A stretch of 41,462 bases of DNA, taken from IMG/VR virus record IMGVR_UViG_2778261298_000002, positions 1-41,462 of that record; one strand, given 5' to 3'. Shown here one piece after another: positions 4,205 through 35,383 of the stretch. The DNA comes from a virus. Lineage: Duplodnaviria; Heunggongvirae; Uroviricota; Caudoviricetes. Under the pieces are notes generated by a model. The model saw only the letters and a program-made list of their open reading frames with translations. It did no database searches and was not told where the DNA came from. Position 1 is the first letter of the stretch, and each line of letters starts with the position of its first letter. The translations under genes and the position numbers were made by a program.

Positions 4205-4789
4205 TTACTCCGGATATTTAAAAATTACGTAGGTATGCGACGGGCAGAGTTTGTTAAGCACACACTCGACAACGGTGTCGCCCCAGATACGCAGTGCGGA
4301 ATCACAGGGATCGCCACATGTCATCCAGGTGGTGTTGGTGGCGGCTGGCATGTTGACCTGCCAGTAATACCGCCATTCCGGCGCATTCACCGCGTCAGTA
4401 CAGGCCGATGAGCAGGTGAACGTGCTTTTATCGTATCGCGTGATAGTGGCGTCTGGTCTGCCCAGGGCAGCAAGCTGTGCAAGATAAAAATCCTCATTGA
4501 TGCCGCCCGCCAGATTAACCTTCGCATCCAGCCGTTGCTGACGCTGGCGAAGGGTCTGTGTCCCTGCGGGAATACATTCATCCGGCAGACCGCACAGACG
4601 CTCCCAGCGGTTTATCAGTTCAGTGGTGGTGCGCGGATCCAGCTCCCGCATCAGGGCATCCGCACGCTGATGAACGCGGGTTAATGACGGTGCCGCACCG
4701 GCAATCGCCGGATCGCTGACTGACCACGCCGGACCGGGCGGCAACAGTGCCGACAACAGACGGATATAATCATCGTTTGTCACGTCCAT
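4205..4789 (-). CDS. Putative tail/baseplate protein (YmfQ / Mu gp48-like)
   Basis: 194 aa, placed between baseplate J and the tail fibre as in e14 and Mu-like tails. Confidence 0.6.
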
Positions 4790-5838
4790 GAAATCGTCCC
4801 CAGAACCGCCAGCTCATTTTTTGCAATGGAGATATTGTCCGCCGGGGCAAGCAACTGATGGCTGTATTCCCCGTTCGCACCGGAAATCGCTTCACTGATA
4901 CGTGACACCTTCAGTTCTCCCTGCGGATAACCATCACGCAGCAGGAACGAACGCAACTCGGCGGTGATGGCAGCCCGTATTTCCGGTGTGTCCGGCGTCA
5001 CGCGGATATGAAAATCCACTTTATGCGCCACCGGCCTGAATACATACAAATCAGAGCCTGCCACCGGGGCCAGTGGCTCGATATGTTGTCTTGCCGCCGT
5101 TTCCGTTGACTCTTCCGGAATGGGATTAATCAGGTCACTGCTGGCAATCATCACACCGACAGACCCCGTTCCCATCCAGTGTCGGTATGTCCATGCGCGG
5201 GTAATGCCGGGCACTTCTTTAGCCCAGACGACATAGTCCCCGTCAGCCCCGCCCTGAGGCGTCCAGTAATACCGCTCAATGACGCGGGCGCGCCACGTTT
5301 CCAGCTCTTCAGTATCAAATCCACCTGTCAGGGTATCTGCCTCGCCGGAAGACGGCAGACCATTCACCGGCGTGACCAGGATTAATGCCGTACCGTCGTC
5401 AGCGTTACCGACCGCGCCTGCACTTGAGCAGGCGATCGGCACGCGCAGGACACCACCGGAGCTGATTGCATCGTCAGTTGTCGTGTACTGCACCAGGTCA
5501 TCGCGCTGAATAACACTCCCGGCAGTCACCTTCAGGCCATCGCTGACACCTTCCCAGCGCATATACCCGCTGGCAACCGTGGCTCCCTTGCGCGGACACC
5601 GTTTCATCTCAGCATGTCGCGCCAGCCAGGACTCATCGCACAGGTCAGGCAGCATATTCATTGCCAGATAATCGATGTAACCGTAGACCGTATGCAGCGC
5701 CGCCGCATACACCTTTGCCCGCACGTCTTCATCCATGCGCCGGAGCGTGTCGCTGACGTCCAGCCTGGCGAATAAATCGTTACGGAGCATACTGATATTT
5801 TCTGCCAGCGTCGGGCGCTGAAATTCACTGTCCGCCAT
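4780..5838 (-). CDS. Baseplate J-like protein (Mu gp47-like)
   Basis: 352 aa; position and size in the Mu-type baseplate cluster. Confidence 0.7.
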
Positions 5839-30090: not shown

Positions 30091-30438
30091 GACCGACCTC
30101 TATTTCCCTGAATTTACGACGAAACTGTTCGAGCGGGCTGAAGCACTCATGCTCATAGCCTTCGCGGAGGTAGATAACTCGTTGTGTTTCCGGCTCCCAA
30201 CGAATGACTCTGACGGGCACTCCGTAGTGATCTTTGAACCAGCGGTTAACTTGTCGCAAAGGACTGTCTCCTTCTGCCGGTTGAAATCACCCACAGCCCA
30301 CTCAGCAAAGCTGTGGGTTACAATTTCCCTGTCACCTGGTACATTAACTGCATAGCAATACTCCACCTTCGCTTTTCCACCCGGTACAGGAAGCGCAATC
30401 AGTTGCGAGCGACGGTAGTGTGTTGTTAAACTGTTCAT
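30080..30438 (-). pseudogene. Hypothetical early gene, apparent frameshift (or sequencing error)
   Basis: N-terminal 50 aa ([51 protein letters not shown]) in one frame; protein-like C-terminus (..[53 protein letters not shown]) in another, ending in a stop that overlaps the replication gene ATG. Confidence 0.4.
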
Positions 30439-31019
30439 GCGTTAGTTTCTCCACAGTCACGACACGCCACGGCGCCCGGAGCTGCACACTCGCGGGCGTC
30501 ATTACTTTCTGAAATGCAAAAGATTTTGTAGACCAGTGCTGCATGCTCCTGCAGCTTCGAAATTGAGAGATACAGCTCGTCGTTAATTGCTGTCTTCTCA
30601 TGCGGTTCCACCACACCGTCTTCGATTGCCGAACGAATCTGTCTGGAATAACTGCCAATCTGTTCAATGACTTCCAGCAGGCGCTTGTTAATATCGGCGT
30701 TGTCCACATCCTCGACGTCAGGAAGAGACACAAAGACGCCATTTGCAGACTGCGCCACAGCGTCAGCAATGAAGTGAGTTCCACCAGCACGTTGCAAAAC
30801 CATTGCCCATCCCAGCGGGAAAATCTGATCGCCATCGGCACGAAGGCGGTTAAATAATGCGTTCTCTGTTACATCCAGCCAGTCAGCAGCTTCAGCGTAA
30901 CCACCCGGCAACGCCGCGATAGTTTTTCTGACAGCTTTCACGTACCACTCAGGCTGTTTTTCTACTTTCCAGTGATGCTTACCCACGGCTATCTCCTTAA
31001 AACTGTGGTTACTTTCCAT
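30435..31019 (-). CDS. Early regulatory protein (YdaT/CII-like, uncertain)
   Basis: 194 aa directly downstream of the cro-like gene. Confidence 0.4.
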
Positions 31020-31257
31020 CTGATAAGTCTTTAATCTTTTGAAAAATATCTGGACGTAATTTTTCTTTTGATACGCCAGTGGTCATTTCAATAAATATCG
31101 AGAGTTTTGCAGGGGGACGCTTTTCTCTGTTCAACCAGTTCCAGACATGTTGTTGCTTTACTAAACGACCACTGCTGGCTGTGAGCTTCCGAGCCAATTC
31201 TGATTGACCACCAGCCAGAGCGATTGCCTCTGATAAGGCTAATTGCTCAGGTGTCAT
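31009..31257 (-). CDS. Cro-like HTH regulator (YdaS-like)
   Basis: 82 aa; HTH (SQSELARKLTASSGRLVKQQHVWNWL); divergent from the CI-like repressor. Confidence 0.65.
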   Translation of the reverse strand: MTPEQLALSEAIALAGGQSELARKLTASSGRLVKQQHVWNWLNREKRPPAKLSIFIEMTTGVSKEKLRPDIFQKIKDLSDGK

Positions 31258-31394
31258 AGCTTTCTCCTATCTGTAAGTAGTAAAGTTGTTGATAACTTCG
31301 ATTATACAACTACAACAACTTTCATCACAACTTTTAGATGTTGGAAAGCTAAAACATAAAGTTGTAACCTCAATAAAAACGAGGGGGATATGTT
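31258..31394. promoter_or_regulatory. Immunity operator/promoter region (OR-like) between cro-like and cI-like genes
   Basis: Repeated half-sites AAGTTGT/ACAACTT; minus-strand promoter TTGTGA-18-TATAAT (rc of 31325-31330 and 31301-31306) toward cro; plus-strand TTGATA at 31289-31294. Confidence 0.6.
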
Positions 31395-32081
31395 GTGAAA
31401 ACATTGGCAGAAAGACTAAAAAGCGAAAGAGAAAAAGCAGGAATGAGTCAGGCGCAACTAGCTGAAAAAATTGGGCTTTCACAACAATCCGTAGCGAAAA
31501 TCGAGAATGGAGAAACTCAACAGCCTCGGAAAATTAAAGAGATTGCTAAAGTGTTAGGGGTTTCTCAAAAGTGGTTGCAATTGGGCATTGAGGATAACGC
31601 GTCTTTCCCAGACCTTGTTGTAAAGGAGGCTGAAAGTACAGCATTAGATCCTGACATTTTTGCAAACATTCCAGTCCTAGATGTCGAGTTATCAGCGGGT
31701 AATGGATGTTTGGCTGAAATAGTTGAATCAACTGTAGACTGGTTCCCGCTAAGAAGGATTGATTTAAGAAAAGCTGGTGTATGTGTCTCCAATGCAAAGA
31801 TCGTAAAAATTTGGGGCAATAGTTTACTACCTGTACTTAACAATGGAGATTTTGTTGCTGTTGATGTTTCCCAAACGGTTCCTATTCGTGATGGGGATCT
31901 TTATGCCATACGTGATGGCGTATTACTTAGAGTTAAAATATTGATCAATTTACCTGACGGTGGTCTGATTCTAAGAAGTTTCAATAAAGATGAGTATCCA
32001 GATGAAATACTCACCTTCGAAGATAGGCGTTCAAGAATTCACGTTATAGGTAGAGTATTCTGGTCATCGCGCACTTGGTAA
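31395..32081 (+). CDS. CI-like repressor (HTH XRE domain plus S24 LexA-like peptidase domain), GTG start
   Basis: 228 aa; N-terminal HTH (MSQAQLAEKIGLSQQSVAKIENGE); C-terminal S24-like domain. Confidence 0.8.
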   Translation: MKTLAERLKSEREKAGMSQAQLAEKIGLSQQSVAKIENGETQQPRKIKEIAKVLGVSQKWLQLGIEDNASFPDLVVKEAESTALDPDIFANIPVLDVELSAGNGCLAEIVESTVDWFPLRRIDLRKAGVCVSNAKIVKIWGNSLLPVLNNGDFVAVDVSQTVPIRDGDLYAIRDGVLLRVKILINLPDGGLILRSFNKDEYPDEILTFEDRRSRIHVIGRVFWSSRTW

Positions 32082-32267
32082 TGCATCAAAAAACCTTCCT
32101 TCAGAAATTTAGTTACCATTATTACCCGCCTTTTCAATCTTCCTCCCGTGATTTGAGAGTTTCCAATCACGGAAGGAAAGTGTCCCTTGTGTAATTAAAA
32201 GCGCATCGTCCATACAACCTCCTTTTTTGATAACCCTTGCCCTCATTTCACATCCGTCAAAACCACA

Positions 32268-32320
32268 TAAAGTTGTTGACAACAACCAAAACAACAACTA
32301 GATTACAACTTAAAGATGTT
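32268..32320. promoter_or_regulatory. Second operator/promoter cluster (OL/PL-like) driving the early-left operon
   Basis: aaagttgttgacaacaaccaaaacaacaactagattacaacttaaagatgttg repeats the OR half-sites; plus-strand TTGACA (32276-32281)-17 bp-TAGATT (32299-32304). Confidence 0.55.
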
Positions 32321-32396
32321 GCAGTAACGAACAGGCAGGACGCCCACGAAGTAGCCGCCGGTGGCGTATGAATGACCGGATGATTCGTTAAATACT

Positions 32397-32618
32397 ATGT
32401 GTAAGAGAGCGCAAATGAACCGTTATTTCACATGCTCGTTTTGTGGCGCAAACGAGCTGCAGGCAAAAAAAATCATCGCCAAAGGCGGAAAAGATGAAGT
32501 TGCTATCTGCTCTGAGTGCGTAGTCTTGTGTGTCGGGGCATTAATCAATATCAGCACAACTATTCAGTTCACACCAAATGAGAATGCGCCTTTAGATGCG
32601 CGGAAATCTGGAGGTTAA
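32397..32618 (+). CDS. Small protein with ClpX-type C4 zinc finger (ClpX N-domain mimic)
   Basis: 73 aa; YFTCSFCGANELQAKKIIAKGGKDEVAICSECVVLC parallels ClpX [33 protein letters not shown]. Confidence 0.65.
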   Translation: MCKRAQMNRYFTCSFCGANELQAKKIIAKGGKDEVAICSECVVLCVGALINISTTIQFTPNENAPLDARKSGG

Positions 32619-32668
32619 AGAACAAAATGAAAGTCCAGATTTTAAACAATAACTGTGAAGTCGTTTGG
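32606..32668. repeat. 63-bp direct repeat, copy 1 (RBS plus first 14 codons MKVQILNN...; truncated ORF here)
   Basis: Near-identical to 33234-33296; here the ORF stops after 15 codons (MKVQILNNNCEVVWA*). Confidence 0.8.
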
Positions 32669-32677
32669 GCGTAAAAC

Positions 32678-32884
32678 ATGACCGCGCGTAGACCAAGGGA
32701 GGAAAAAGTGGGAATAGTTAGAAATCAAGCAGATATATTGAAAATCAGCTCTGAATTGCTTGGAGTTTTGAAAAGTGAGCTCACCGCACATGGCATCGAG
32801 CCCACTGACGAAAATTTAAGTTGGGTTTTGTCGATTATTCAACAATCACTCAAGCCCAGCCTCAGCAAACTTTTTATCGAGTAG
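32678..32884 (+). CDS. Hypothetical small protein (68 aa; alternative GTG start at 32708)
   Basis: ORF with RBS GGGAGG before the GTG; 3' end overlaps the convergent minus-strand ORF. Confidence 0.4.
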   Translation: MTARRPREEKVGIVRNQADILKISSELLGVLKSELTAHGIEPTDENLSWVLSIIQQSLKPSLSKLFIE

Positions 32885-33037
32885 TGCTTCGAACTTATCG
32901 TAAAGCTTGCTTATGTCGTCTATCGGGTTTTCTGACGTACTGTAATTTTTATCTGATGTCATGGCAGCAGTCTGATATGCAGTGTGAGTCTTAACAGATA
33001 GTTGGAATAAATAAAGAATTTTTTCTTCTTTGGTCAT
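32846..33037 (-). CDS. Hypothetical small protein (63 aa from the ATG with a good RBS)
   Basis: MTKEEKILYLFQLSVKTH...; RBS aggaaa; 91-bp repeat lies about 35 bp upstream. Confidence 0.45.
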   Translation of the reverse strand: MTKEEKILYLFQLSVKTHTAYQTAAMTSDKNYSTSENPIDDISKLYDKFEALLDKKFAEAGLE

Positions 33038-33071
33038 AACTATTTCCTTCTTGGCTATATGAAAACACCAA

Positions 33072-33162
33072 GATACCACCGAGCCTGAAGTGGTGAAAAG
33101 ACAGGCACATAACAGCTAAGTATTTTCAACCAGAGAGAATCCTTAGCGTTGTGGTGAATGCG
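33072..33162. repeat. 91-bp direct repeat, copy 1 (upstream of minus-strand small gene)
   Basis: gataccaccgagcctgaagtggtgaaaagacaggcacataacagctaagtattttcaaccagagagaatccttagcgttgtggtgaatgcg; identical copy at 33727-33817. Confidence 0.85.
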
Positions 33163-33233
33163 CAGGCTGATGCGCGAAAGACATTGCAGCTATTGCGGAA
33201 AAGAGCTGTTCGGCGGGGCCATTAAACGCCCGT

Positions 33234-33296
33234 ATCTGGAGGTTAAAGAACAAAATGAAAGTCCAGATTTTAAACAATAGTGGTGAAGTCGTTTGG
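33234..33296. repeat. 63-bp direct repeat, copy 2 (start of the full-length MKVQILNN ORF)
   Basis: Matches 32606-32668. Confidence 0.8.
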
Positions 33297-33530
33297 TCAT
33301 ACGACATAGCCGCTCCTGTAGATCAGAGCGGCGATAGCTGGACCAATGGGAAACATCAGATTATGGCTGGAGTTGTGTTCTCTTTACGCCGTGCTTTGGA
33401 ACAGGCTGAAGTATTTCCATCAGACCCTGAATGGAAATGGCCTTTTTCTATTTGTCCAAATTCGGAGAGCACATTTCAGAAAATTGGTCAGAAAGTCGCA
33501 CTCGAAGAGCATCAGCCAACTGTTTCCTGA
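33255..33530 (+). CDS. Hypothetical small protein (91 aa)
   Basis: MKVQILNNSGEVVWSYDIAAPV...; RBS GGAGG; 3' end overlaps the convergent ORF. Confidence 0.5.
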   Translation: MKVQILNNSGEVVWSYDIAAPVDQSGDSWTNGKHQIMAGVVFSLRRALEQAEVFPSDPEWKWPFSICPNSESTFQKIGQKVALEEHQPTVS

Positions 33531-33693
33531 TTTTTTCAGGTAACTCGTCGGCATCGCAGAAACAACAACGCTCGATCATGTTGAAAGCCGATTCGTAGAA
33601 CTGTTTCTGCTGAGTGTCGCTGAGACAGGAAAAGAGCGACGTTACGATGATTTTATTAATTGCATTATCAAGTTCTTTTTCATCAAAAGTCAT
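33448..33693 (-). CDS. Hypothetical small protein (81 aa, Cys-containing)
   Basis: MTFDEKELDNAINKII...ERCCFCDADELPEK...; RBS aaggaaaa; 91-bp repeat about 34 bp upstream. Confidence 0.5.
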   Translation of the reverse strand: MTFDEKELDNAINKIIVTSLFSCLSDTQQKQFYESAFNMIERCCFCDADELPEKIRKQLADALRVRLSDQFSEMCSPNLDK

Positions 33694-33726
33694 TTGATTT
33701 TCCTTTTATGTATACGGGCTTAAAAG

Positions 33727-33817
33727 GATACCACCGAGCCTGAAGTGGTGAAAAGACAGGCACATAACAGCTAAGTATTTTCAACCAGAGAGAATCCTTA
33801 GCGTTGTGGTGAATGCG
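33727..33817. repeat. 91-bp direct repeat, copy 2
   Basis: Identical to 33072-33162. Confidence 0.85.
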
Positions 33818-33947
33818 GCTCAGCGCACGCGGGTTAAGGTTGAGGCTGACAGTCGACCTTCTGTGGATACCCACCCGCCTGGTGTGCAACCTTCGCCAGG
33901 CACCGGGAGGCACCCGGCACCACAACTTTATGCTGTGTGTAGTCCTC

Positions 33948-33993
33948 GCGGTACCAGTTTGTACACTTGCTTCCGGCTGGTACCGCTCTTTTT
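33948..33993 (+). terminator. Terminator-like hairpin (10-bp stem gcggtaccag/ctggtaccgc plus T-run) in a GC-rich structured leader
   Basis: Perfect 10-bp inverted repeat with a 19-nt loop, followed by tcttttt. Confidence 0.4.
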
Positions 33994-34130
33994 ACAAAAC
34001 AGAGAAGAGCATCACCGGACGACGGGCTCATAACCCAATCCATCCGGGCGGCTGCCACCGCAGGTGTTCTTCTCTGTTTTGTGGAGAAACCAACCGACCT
34101 TGCAGGGTCGATATGATGAGGAGCAGCAAA

Positions 34131-34493
34131 ATGGCTAGCGAACGCAGTACTGATGTGCAGGCATTTATCGGGGAGCTGGACGGCGGCGTATTTGAAACCA
34201 AAATCGGCGCTGTTCTCAGTGAAGTCGCTTCCGGTGTGATGAACACGAAAACCAAAGGTAAGGTCTCGCTCAACCTGGAAATCGAACCATTTGATGAGAA
34301 CCGTGTGAAAATCAAACACAAACTCTCATATGTTCGCCCGACTAACCGCGGGAAAATTTCCGAAGAAGACACCACCGAAACGCCGATGTATGTCAATCGC
34401 GGTGGTCGCCTGACTATTCTGCAGGAAGACCAGGGACAATTACTGACTCTTGCCGGTGAACCTGACGGAAAACTCCGCGCAGCAGGTCGTTAA
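34131..34493 (+). CDS. Hypothetical protein, YfdP-like (120 aa)
   Basis: Start taken at MASERS with RBS GAGGAG; size and order recall the CPS-53 yfdP-yfdT block; the track's longer ORF from 33813 is rejected. Confidence 0.5.
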   Translation: MASERSTDVQAFIGELDGGVFETKIGAVLSEVASGVMNTKTKGKVSLNLEIEPFDENRVKIKHKLSYVRPTNRGKISEEDTTETPMYVNRGGRLTILQEDQGQLLTLAGEPDGKLRAAGR

Positions 34494-34558
34494 TATCGTT
34501 CGTAATAAACTGATTATTTATCTCATCACTGAATATCTTTATATAGTGAGGACTTATT

Positions 34559-35383
34559 ATGTCTCAGAACTTAGACGCAACCGCAATTAATCAAATCCAT
34601 GCCCTTATTTCTGCTCAGGGTGTTAATGAAATTATCAGTAAGATTGGTGCCGATGCTGTGGCATTGCCTGAGAATTTCCGCATTCATGATCTGGAAAAAT
34701 TTAATTTAAATCGCTTCCGTTTCCGTGGTGCGCTTTCCACTGCCAGTATCGATGACTTTACCCGTTATTCTAAAGATCTTGCAGATGAAGGCACCCGCTG
34801 CTTTATCGATGCCGATAATATGCGTGCCGTCAGTGTGCTTAACCTGGGTACTATTGATGAACCAGGTCACGCAGATAACACCGCCACTCTCAAACTGAAA
34901 AAGACAGCACCGTTCTCTGCCCTGTTGTCTGTTAACGGCGAGCGTAACTCCCAGAAATCACTGGCAGAATGGATTGAAGACTGGGCCGACTACCTTGTGG
35001 GCTTTGATGCTAATGGTGACGCCATTCAGGCAACAAAAGCGGCGGCGGCAATCCGTAAAATCACGATTGAAGCAAACCAGACCGCTGATTTTGAAGATAA
35101 TGACTTCAGCGGCAAACGCTCCCTGATGGAATCTGTCGAAGCGAAGACCAAAGACATTATGCCAGTGGCATTTGAATTTAAATGCGTTCCATTTGAAGGC
35201 CTGAAAGAACGTCCGTTTAAATTACGACTCAGCATTATCACTGGCGATCGTCCTGTACTGGTTCTGCGCATTATTCAGCTGGAAGCGGTGCAGGAAGAAA
35301 TGGCTAACGAATTTCGTGATCTGCTTGTTGAGAAATTCAAAGACAGCAAAGTAGAAACCTTTATTGGTACTTTCACCGCCTGA
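34559..35383 (+). CDS. DUF2303-like protein (YfdQ-like, 274 aa)
   Basis: Size and synteny; RBS GTGAGGA upstream. Confidence 0.5.

Follow-up and report, generated by a model that had tools for sequence, protein, structure and literature searches.

The stretch of DNA analysed here (the window) comprises 41,462 bp of a virus of the Caudoviricetes (IMG/VR record IMGVR_UViG_2778261298_000002) and contains an immunity region in which a CI-like repressor gene is located between two control regions with shared sequence motifs. The repressor gene (cI, 31395-32081, plus strand) encodes a protein of 228 amino acids that matches the Pfam families HTH_3 (1e-15) and Peptidase_S24 (1e-13). Divergent from cI, on the minus strand, are a cro-like gene (31009-31257, 82 amino acids), whose product matches Pfam YdaS_toxin (3.6e-14), phrog_35 (transcriptional repressor) and, weakly, the Cro structure 3bd1, and then a gene of the CII family (30435-31019, Phage_CP76 (CII)/YmfL). 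Overall, the components of a lambdoid module were found: a repressor with HTH and S24 domains, a divergent cro-type gene followed by a cII-type gene, and repeated dyads of operator type both in the right operator region (OR) between cro and cI and at the leftward promoter (PL) beyond cI, in the left operator region (OL).

Within a 22-sequence alignment of the repressor family, residues G102, S143, and K181 of CI are invariant and A101 is nearly so (at least 90%); these conserved Ala-Gly, Ser, and Lys residues fit a RecA-stimulated self-cleavage of CI. The closest solved structure to the N-terminal domain is the 434 repressor (1per/2or1/1r69; E = 1.2e-14, residues 4-68, 65 ungapped residues), with ∼46% identity by manual count from the alignment. 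The segment SQQSVAKIENG of CI is aligned with TQQSIEQLENG of 434, which retains the Gln-Gln-Ser start of the recognition helix, and Gln33 of 434 corresponds to Lys35 in CI. The recognition helix is conserved across the family.

The window was compared with 13 related prophage loci from six genera, which gives 14 loci with the window itself. The relatives are a second Escherichia coli lineage (KE58, L002), Citrobacter, a contig labelled Pseudomonas lundensis (L005), Rosenbergiella, Tatumella, five Providencia, Proteus, and two Serratia. Loci L004-L026 were obtained from one scan of reference genomes. All 13 relatives keep the motif pattern described below in the cro-cI interval and beyond cI; the sequence between the motifs is scrambled and the flanks have diverged. 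Cro orthologues with a KQQ[QH]VWNW helix are present in 12 out of 13 relatives. The KE58 module is 89% identical to the window, and the CI family is spread over the Enterobacterales with 45-92% identity. The same 1.8-kb region was found at ≥99% identity in ∼49 complete E. coli genomes, and ∼58 complete E. coli genomes cover at least 80% of it, always in a prophage.

The contig labelled Pseudomonas lundensis (JAWQUI010000002.1) carries an enterobacterial-type module (CI 69% identical, the BRCT gene described below 77% identical, and the same PL leader); either the module was transferred recently, or the assembly is mislabelled or contaminated. Another record (L003, NZ_CP081716.1) is annotated as “plasmid unnamed3” of E. 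coli CX04 (37.7 kb, circular). It shares 93% identity with the window region, but several of its genes are frameshifted and its S24 annotation is truncated, so that this is probably not a plasmid but a related prophage in an excised or error-rich copy.

Motif blocks, promoters, and a 15-bp palindrome

The 7-mer AAGTTGT/ACAACTT occurs 11 times on the two strands of the window (5.4 copies expected). Six of the 11 copies, at 31283, 31359, and 32270 on the plus strand and at 31315, 31327, and 32305 on the minus strand, are located within two short stretches (31283-31365 and 32270-32311, ∼125 bp in total), where 0.016 copies are expected (Poisson P ∼3e-14), or 0.07 under the local A/T-rich composition. 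In addition, ACATAAAGTTGT is common to OR (31354-65) and OL (32265-76) with 12 out of 12 bases identical, and ATCACAACTTTTAGATGTTG (31324-43) matches 32302-21 at 17 out of 20 positions. The onset of the OL cluster is located 181-189 bp past the cI stop (32081). A first-pass annotation of the window had reported AAGTTGT/ACAACTT blocks in the cro-cI interval and again ∼190 bp past the cI stop, each with a plausible -35/-10 pair, and this description was borne out, including the promoters, which reach a score of 10 in both regions in the scan described next.

Promoters were scanned with the sigma-70 consensus hexamers (score out of 12, threshold 9). The PR-like promoter on the minus strand (31330..31301) points towards cro and consists of TTGTGA (31330..31325) and TATAAT (31306..31301) separated by an 18-nt spacer; its transcription start is predicted at ∼31294. 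The PL-like promoter on the plus strand (32276-32304) points away from cI and into a gene for a ClpX-type zinc-finger protein, and consists of TTGACA (32276-81) and TAGATT (32299-304) with a 17-nt spacer. Among the 14 loci, the PL columns TTG.C and TA.AT. are invariant or nearly so and their spacing is fixed. The predicted promoter of cI (PRM, 31341-31370, plus strand) has a -35 of TTGGAA (31341-46), an 18-nt spacer, and a -10 of TAACCT (31365-70). With 7 out of 12 by manual count against the consensus hexamers it falls below the threshold of the scan, which did not list it, but none of the 14 loci deviates from TTGGA or from the T-A-n-n-n-T pattern of the -10. The scan found no intrinsic terminator on the plus strand after cI, and an Rfam scan of 30800-35000 returned no match in OR, OL, or the PL leader.

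The unit that is conserved across the 14 loci is a 15-bp palindrome, ACAAC-N5-GTTGT, with an A/T-rich center. The OR-like and OL-like sites of the first-pass annotation thus need to be redrawn: the control regions themselves stand, together with the CI, Cro, and CII genes and the conservation in 13 loci, and the core of the motif was correct, but the operator unit is the palindrome instead of isolated 7-mers, with two full sites per region and not a lambda-like three. A symmetrized position weight matrix (PWM) was trained exclusively on loci outside E. coli, using their ten distinct OL 15-mers; no OR site was part of the training set. In a PWM scan of the whole window the four operator sites rank 1, 2, 3, and 5 (scores 17.8-22.2); the maximum in shuffled windows has a mean of 12.4 (sd 1.9). 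In each of the 14 loci the matrix identifies exactly two sites in OR and two in OL, and no third full operator was found at a PWM score ≥9 in OR or OL of the window. The pattern ACAACNNNNNGTTGT, with up to one mismatch, has six matches in the window (1.7 expected), and four of the six are the operator sites.

Two other PWM matches were evaluated. The match at rank 6 (17467-81, score 11.5) is unrelated. The match at rank 4 (33922-36, score 18.0) was rejected as an immunity-linked site: it lies inside an STnc100-like element, and the heteroimmune phage SfII, which has a CI of just 27% identity and unrelated repeats in its OR, carries the identical sequence. The match is not tied to this immunity type.

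OR contains two full sites. OR-c (ACAACTTTTAGATGT, 31327-31341, score 20.3, rank 2) overlaps the PR -35 with four bases of its left half, and its final base doubles as the first of the PRM -35, which places its center at ∼-43 from the PRM start predicted at ∼31377. An equivalent of OR-c is present in all 14 loci with invariant ACAAC and G.TGT columns. OR-d (AAAACATAAAGTTGT, 31351-31365, score 17.8, rank 5) fills the PRM spacer and reaches the first base of the -10, an OR3-like position, and is located 24-25 bp past OR-c in every locus (24 bp in the window). On the other side of cI, OL-A (ACCACATAAAGTTGT, 32262-32276, score 19.3, rank 3) overlaps the start of the PL -35 by a single base, its last, and has its center at ∼-42. 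It was found in 14 out of 14 loci, and the version in Providencia and Proteus is the perfect palindrome ACAACATAAAGTTGT. OL-B (ACAACTTAAAGATGT, 32305-32319, score 22.2, the best in the window) directly follows the PL -10, covers the PL start predicted at ∼32311 (∼+1), and begins exactly 43 bp after the start of OL-A in all 14 loci. In five loci OL-B reads ACACCTTAAAGTTGT, with the imperfect half on the opposite side compared with the window. The side of the imperfect half-site depends on the clade, which fits a symmetric protein-binding site.

The palindrome is also present in a distant clade (L016-L024; Budviciaceae, Serratia oryzae, and relatives) in which CI is ∼48% identical and retains the recognition helix. 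Five of these loci contain a perfect ACAAC-N5-GTTGT at -121 to -125 from cI. The divergent gene of this clade encodes a 116-119-amino-acid protein (MNNIK..LEMWGNWAR..) that does not belong to the Cro family, and the perfect operator site adjoins its start. In the distant clade the same repressor-operator pair is combined with another partner protein.

A further site in OR, OR-a (31275-31289, ∼+5 to +19 of the PR transcript), is degenerate and keeps the right half GTTGT (31285-89) and an A-rich center. An orphan GTTGT is located at -42 or -43 from the start of OR-c in 11 out of 14 loci, and the relative position of OR-a holds the fuller site ACCACCATTAGTTGT in L014 and a perfect ACAAC-N5-GTTGT in the distant clade. 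Since the 15-mer ending in 31285-89 occupies the same relative position as full sites elsewhere, OR-a may be read as a decayed third operator.

Half-sites that belong to no full palindrome occur in both regions. Two orphan ACAAC half-sites on the plus strand (31306-10 and 31315-19) lie inside the PR core, and the corresponding ACAAC at -21 and -12 from OR-c are kept in seven loci; Providencia and Proteus have ACAAC at -33 plus -9 or -12 instead, and a further ACAAC in the window (31312-16) is not conserved. A third orphan (32294-32298, plus strand) is located immediately upstream of the PL -10, 11 bp before OL-B, and ACAAC is found at -11 or -12 from OL-B in 13 out of 14 loci. Overall, a total of 43 orphan half-sites were identified between cro and OR-c across the 14 loci (2.3 expected from local composition), and within a clade they occupy fixed positions. 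The palindrome does not account for the ACAAC orphans located one turn upstream of OR-c and OL-B. The Cro-family protein, which is co-inherited with the module and carries the K-Q-Q-[QH]-V-W-N-W helix, is a candidate ligand of these ACAAC orphans.

Two other types of repeat were rejected. Palindromes of reverse polarity (GTTGTTGACAACAAC at 32272-86; 10-nt arms at 31282-91/31313-22) have a polarity that is incompatible with the 15-mer, their spacing varies among clades (4-6 or 16 bp), and they are kept just as orphan half-sites. The ACAACAAC repeats in the PL spacer are specific to the window and not conserved in relatives.

The interval between cI and OL and the early-left region

A 62-codon open reading frame (ORF) with a TTG start is located on the minus strand between cI and the OL cluster (32109-32297). 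The suggestion that it occupies the place of rex in lambda as a rex-like gene did not survive. The TTG (32297) sits between the -35 and the -10 of PL, the ORF has no Pfam match, and the Prokaryotic Genome Annotation Pipeline (PGAP) calls no gene at this position in a 99.8% identical genome. In KE58 the interval between cI and OL contains a gene for a 296-amino-acid BRCT-domain protein on the minus strand (L002, 4163-5053). A blastn comparison aligned 32198-32420 of the window with L002 5038-5261, 32188-32203 with 5021-5036, and 32128-32186 with 4248-4306. The window thus lacks L002 4307-5020, an in-frame deletion of 714 bp (238 of 296 codons) that removes most of the BRCT domain. The remnant (32109-32213, minus strand) consists of 34 codons that begin at the native ATG (32213), with AAGGAGG upstream, and fuse the N-terminal 11 amino acids to the C-terminal ∼23. 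By this alignment, the 62-codon ORF is the frame of the remnant extended up to the TTG at 32297 and not a rex analogue, and no intact protein-coding gene was found in the interval of the window.

The full BRCT gene was found in 12 relatives within six genera (L002, L004-L013, and L015; 55-77% amino acid identity by tblastn). The BRCT domain of its product is C-terminal, and the N-terminal part contains three DG[IV][IV]xxEE-type repeats; the protein is a member of phrog_3989 (unknown function), and PADLOC gives just a weak match to PDC-S48. The ancestral gene is oriented antisense to cI and thus not co-transcribed with it, and no minus-strand promoter for the gene or its remnant was found by the scan or by eye. 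The BRCT gene may be an accessory or defence gene expressed in the lysogen. The interval between cI and N is a hotspot of accessory and defence genes, such as rexAB and bstA (10.1101/2020.07.13.199331), making the positional analogy with rex apt, though the slot holds a remnant here. An inverted repeat (32140-32156/32162-32178, 17-nt arms, 88% complementary, 5-nt gap) is located within the remnant and recurs in the intact gene of KE58. With no T-run after it on the plus or the minus strand, it does not qualify as a standard intrinsic terminator.

The first gene downstream of PL, in the position of lambda N, encodes a ClpX-type C4 zinc-finger protein of 67-73 amino acids (32415-32618 from the PGAP start, with the ATG at 32397 also open; plus strand; Pfam zf-C4_ClpX, 1.4e-10; phrog_5259, unknown function). 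The gene is called by PGAP in KE58 and in L001, a genome nearly identical to the window; a search for literature on the role of this protein found none. The PL leader contains a segment, CGAACAGGCAGGACGCCCACGAAGTAGCCGCC (32328-32359, plus strand), that is conserved at the nucleotide level in the window, KE58, the contig labelled Pseudomonas lundensis, and Serratia microhaemolytica (L013), with different neighbors. The segment has no Rfam match and may serve the early-left transcript as an RNA element or a protein-binding element.

Further downstream, an Rfam match to the small RNA STnc100 (33773-33995, plus strand) scores 49.1 bits (gathering score 47). The element is 97-100% identical in the heteroimmune phages SfII, vB_EcoM-720R4, and PhiR49_1, and 33922-36 within it matches the operator consensus by chance. 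The second copy of a perfect 91-bp direct repeat (33072-33162/33727-33817, 655 bp apart) extends into the STnc100-like element at its 5' side. L001 appears to be ∼650 bp shorter at this repeat, which may therefore be a tandem duplication specific to the window. A second direct repeat of 80 nt (32606-32685/33234-33313, 89% identical, 628 bp apart) spans the last part of the ClpX-zinc-finger gene together with the beginning of the small ORF that follows (GGAGGTTAAAGAACAAAATGAAAGTCCAGATTTTAAACAATA) and suggests reshuffled small-gene modules.

A proposed switch and its alternatives

Based on sequence, statistics, conservation, and protein homology, the region is very probably the immunity module of a temperate lambdoid E. 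coli prophage of the SfII/SfV/e14-like type with CI operators at OR and OL, and a two-plus-two layout of the predicted operators is supported over the three-plus-three layout of lambda. In the proposed switch, a CI dimer would bind the 15-bp palindromes ACAAC-N5-GTTGT with their A/T-rich center. On OR-c, the dimer would cover the PR -35 and adjoin the weak PRM -35 from ∼-43; lambda CI at OR2 activates PRM from a position that matches the center of OR-c. On OR-d, within the PRM spacer, it would turn cI off at high repressor levels (autorepression). OR-a and the orphan ACAAC half-sites would overlie the -10 and start region of PR. OL-A and OL-B, 43 bp or ∼four helical turns apart, would bracket PL, a strong promoter, at ∼-42 and +1 and turn the early-left operon off. 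The divergent Cro-family protein would probably use the same sites in the lytic direction, and SOS-triggered self-cleavage at Ala101-Gly102 would release repression. The 62-codon ORF would play no part in this mechanism.

Several points weigh against the proposed switch. The three-operator paradigm of lambda, 434, and P22 does not apply, with two full sites per region in 14 out of 14 loci, and the -10 and start region of PR is covered by no more than orphan half-sites and one half-degenerate site. PRM is a weak match to the consensus, and its designation as the cI promoter follows from its conservation. OL-A is located at an “activating” distance from PL, which makes its repressive role uncertain. 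The operator is 1 bp longer than that of 434, so the 434 complex is not simply transferable. Among sequenced phages, none was found to carry this immunity region, and the DNA-level matches to SfII/SfV/SfIV-type phages are confined to the flanks. Finally, literature searches by motif, protein accession, and 434-type operator found no paper on this immunity module. The closest CI of a sequenced phage is 44% identical (best matches 41-44%, including Stx1-converting phages); with matches to the flanks only and a CI identity of at most 44%, the assignment of the region to a named phage was rejected.

A more pronounced departure from lambda is possible, though less likely than not. It would combine two full operators per region with pairs of sites an integral number of turns apart that bracket promoters (OL-A/OL-B and OR-a/OR-c) and with the orphan half-sites; repression would involve short-range looping or the capture of half-sites by a 434-like repressor, and this layout would be kept across the Enterobacterales. 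The spacing between OR-a and OR-c is 52 bp, near five helical turns. Lambda repressor reportedly binds cooperatively to sites that are separated by integral turns, and together with the spacings seen here this makes a cooperativity that brackets the promoters plausible.

It is improbable that the motifs are mainly sites of the YdaS-type Cro-family protein or of another factor, with CI binding elsewhere or to a subset of them and with the orphan direct repeats and the reverse-polarity GTTGT...ACAAC pairs as the true Cro operators. The Cro family does co-vary with the module, its predicted recognition helix also begins with K-Q-Q, and the conserved orphan half-sites do not fit a CI-type palindrome. 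A precedent is available in E. coli prophage CP-933P, where the footprints of the YdaS-type Cro and the CI-like PaaR2 overlap yet differ and some repeats are half-conserved (PMC8630535). However, the distant clade that lacks this Cro and has the CI recognition helix still contains perfect ACAAC-N5-GTTGT sites, and the half-site begins with ACA as expected of the Gln-Gln helix shared with the 434 repressor. Moreover, CI and Cro share operators in the characterized lambdoid switches.

The proposal in its original form, in which the 7-bp blocks are lambda-like operator sets and the 62-codon ORF is an expressed rex-like gene, is no less improbable. The 7-mers are real and clustered, the remnant retains its native ATG and a strong ribosome-binding site, and rexAB and bstA are known from the interval between cI and PL (10.1101/2020.07.13.199331). 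Against this, the conserved unit is the 15-mer with just two full sites per region, and the ORF begins inside PL, has neither a family match nor a PGAP call, and has lost 238 of 296 codons. That there are no specific operators at all, and that the two regions resemble each other by chance, by their A/T-rich promoter composition, or because promoter DNA was simply duplicated, is effectively refuted: both regions are A/T-rich promoter DNA and an equally good PWM match exists at a site clearly unrelated to immunity (33922-36), but six copies stand against the 0.07 expected from local composition and the sites keep a fixed spacing across genera in which the spacers are randomized.

The predicted CI/Cro switch with 15-bp operators defines an operator sequence, promoters, and a layout for an immunity type present in ∼58 complete E. 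coli genomes, with related forms in other genera of the Enterobacterales. It offers a natural comparison for the adaptation of a 434-type domain to a 15-bp site. In addition, a spurious small gene is kept out of the annotation, and the conserved BRCT gene in the rex-like slot of the relatives is the more interesting unknown.

Comparison with known systems

Phage 434 resembles the region in several respects: its repressor is the closest solved relative of the CI N-terminal domain, the recognition helix starts with Gln-Gln-Ser, the outer edge of the half-site is ACA(A), and OL and PL are located beyond cI in a divergent cro/cI order. In the 434 complex, the first base pairs of ACAA are recognized by the two glutamines, a contact that the invariant outer A-C of the half-site fits. 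The A/T-rich center of the operators is likewise consistent with the indirect readout of 434 (PMC3317979). The 434 operator, however, is a 14-bp ACAA-N6-TTGT, whereas the operator here is a 15-bp ACAA-N7-TTGT with C as a fifth conserved base, and no 14-bp site of the 434 type was found in the whole window. The two systems further differ in the number of full sites per region (three in 434 and two here), in the replacement of 434 Gln33 by Lys35, and in Cro, which is of the YdaS/lambda-Cro type and not a paralogue of the repressor domain as in 434. The repressor-operator pair appears to work like that of 434, yet falls outside the strict 434 operator class.

The Stx phage 933W is said to have just two OL sites. 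It also departs from the three-plus-three layout, with a peculiarity at OL3 and an affinity order unlike that of lambda, and its repressor domain was also modeled on 434 (PMC3317979). Its operator sequence is unrelated, and 933W keeps three OR sites.

The PaaR2/YdaS/YdaT system of prophage CP-933P in E. coli O157:H7 (PMC8630535) shares a CI-like repressor with a YdaS-family Cro, a short intergenic region with overlapping divergent promoters, full palindromes mixed with single-half repeats, and matching repeats at the downstream PL region. The footprints of its CI-like protein and its YdaS-type Cro overlap across both full palindromes and half-only repeats (PMC8630535), which sets a precedent for the orphan half-sites found here. 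In contrast to the window, CP-933P has 18-bp palindromes of the GTTTAGTAA type, a CII analogue of the YdaT type instead of CP76/YmfL, and a toxin-antitoxin pair after the repressor (PMC8630535).

With lambda, the region shares divergent PR and PRM promoters overlapped by operators, a spacing of 24 bp between OR-c and OR-d as between adjacent lambda operators, one operator at ∼-42/-43 from the predicted PRM start, a self-cleaving S24 domain, and an accessory slot between cI and PL. Unlike lambda, it has a different repressor DNA-binding domain and operator sequence, no tripartite operator, OL sites 43 bp apart that bracket the promoter, a cI that appears to have a Shine-Dalgarno leader, and, in the relatives, an accessory gene antisense to cI. 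Overall, the comparison points to a previously uncharacterized immunity specificity of the well-known CI/Cro switch, one that would leave the general picture of lambdoid switches unchanged.

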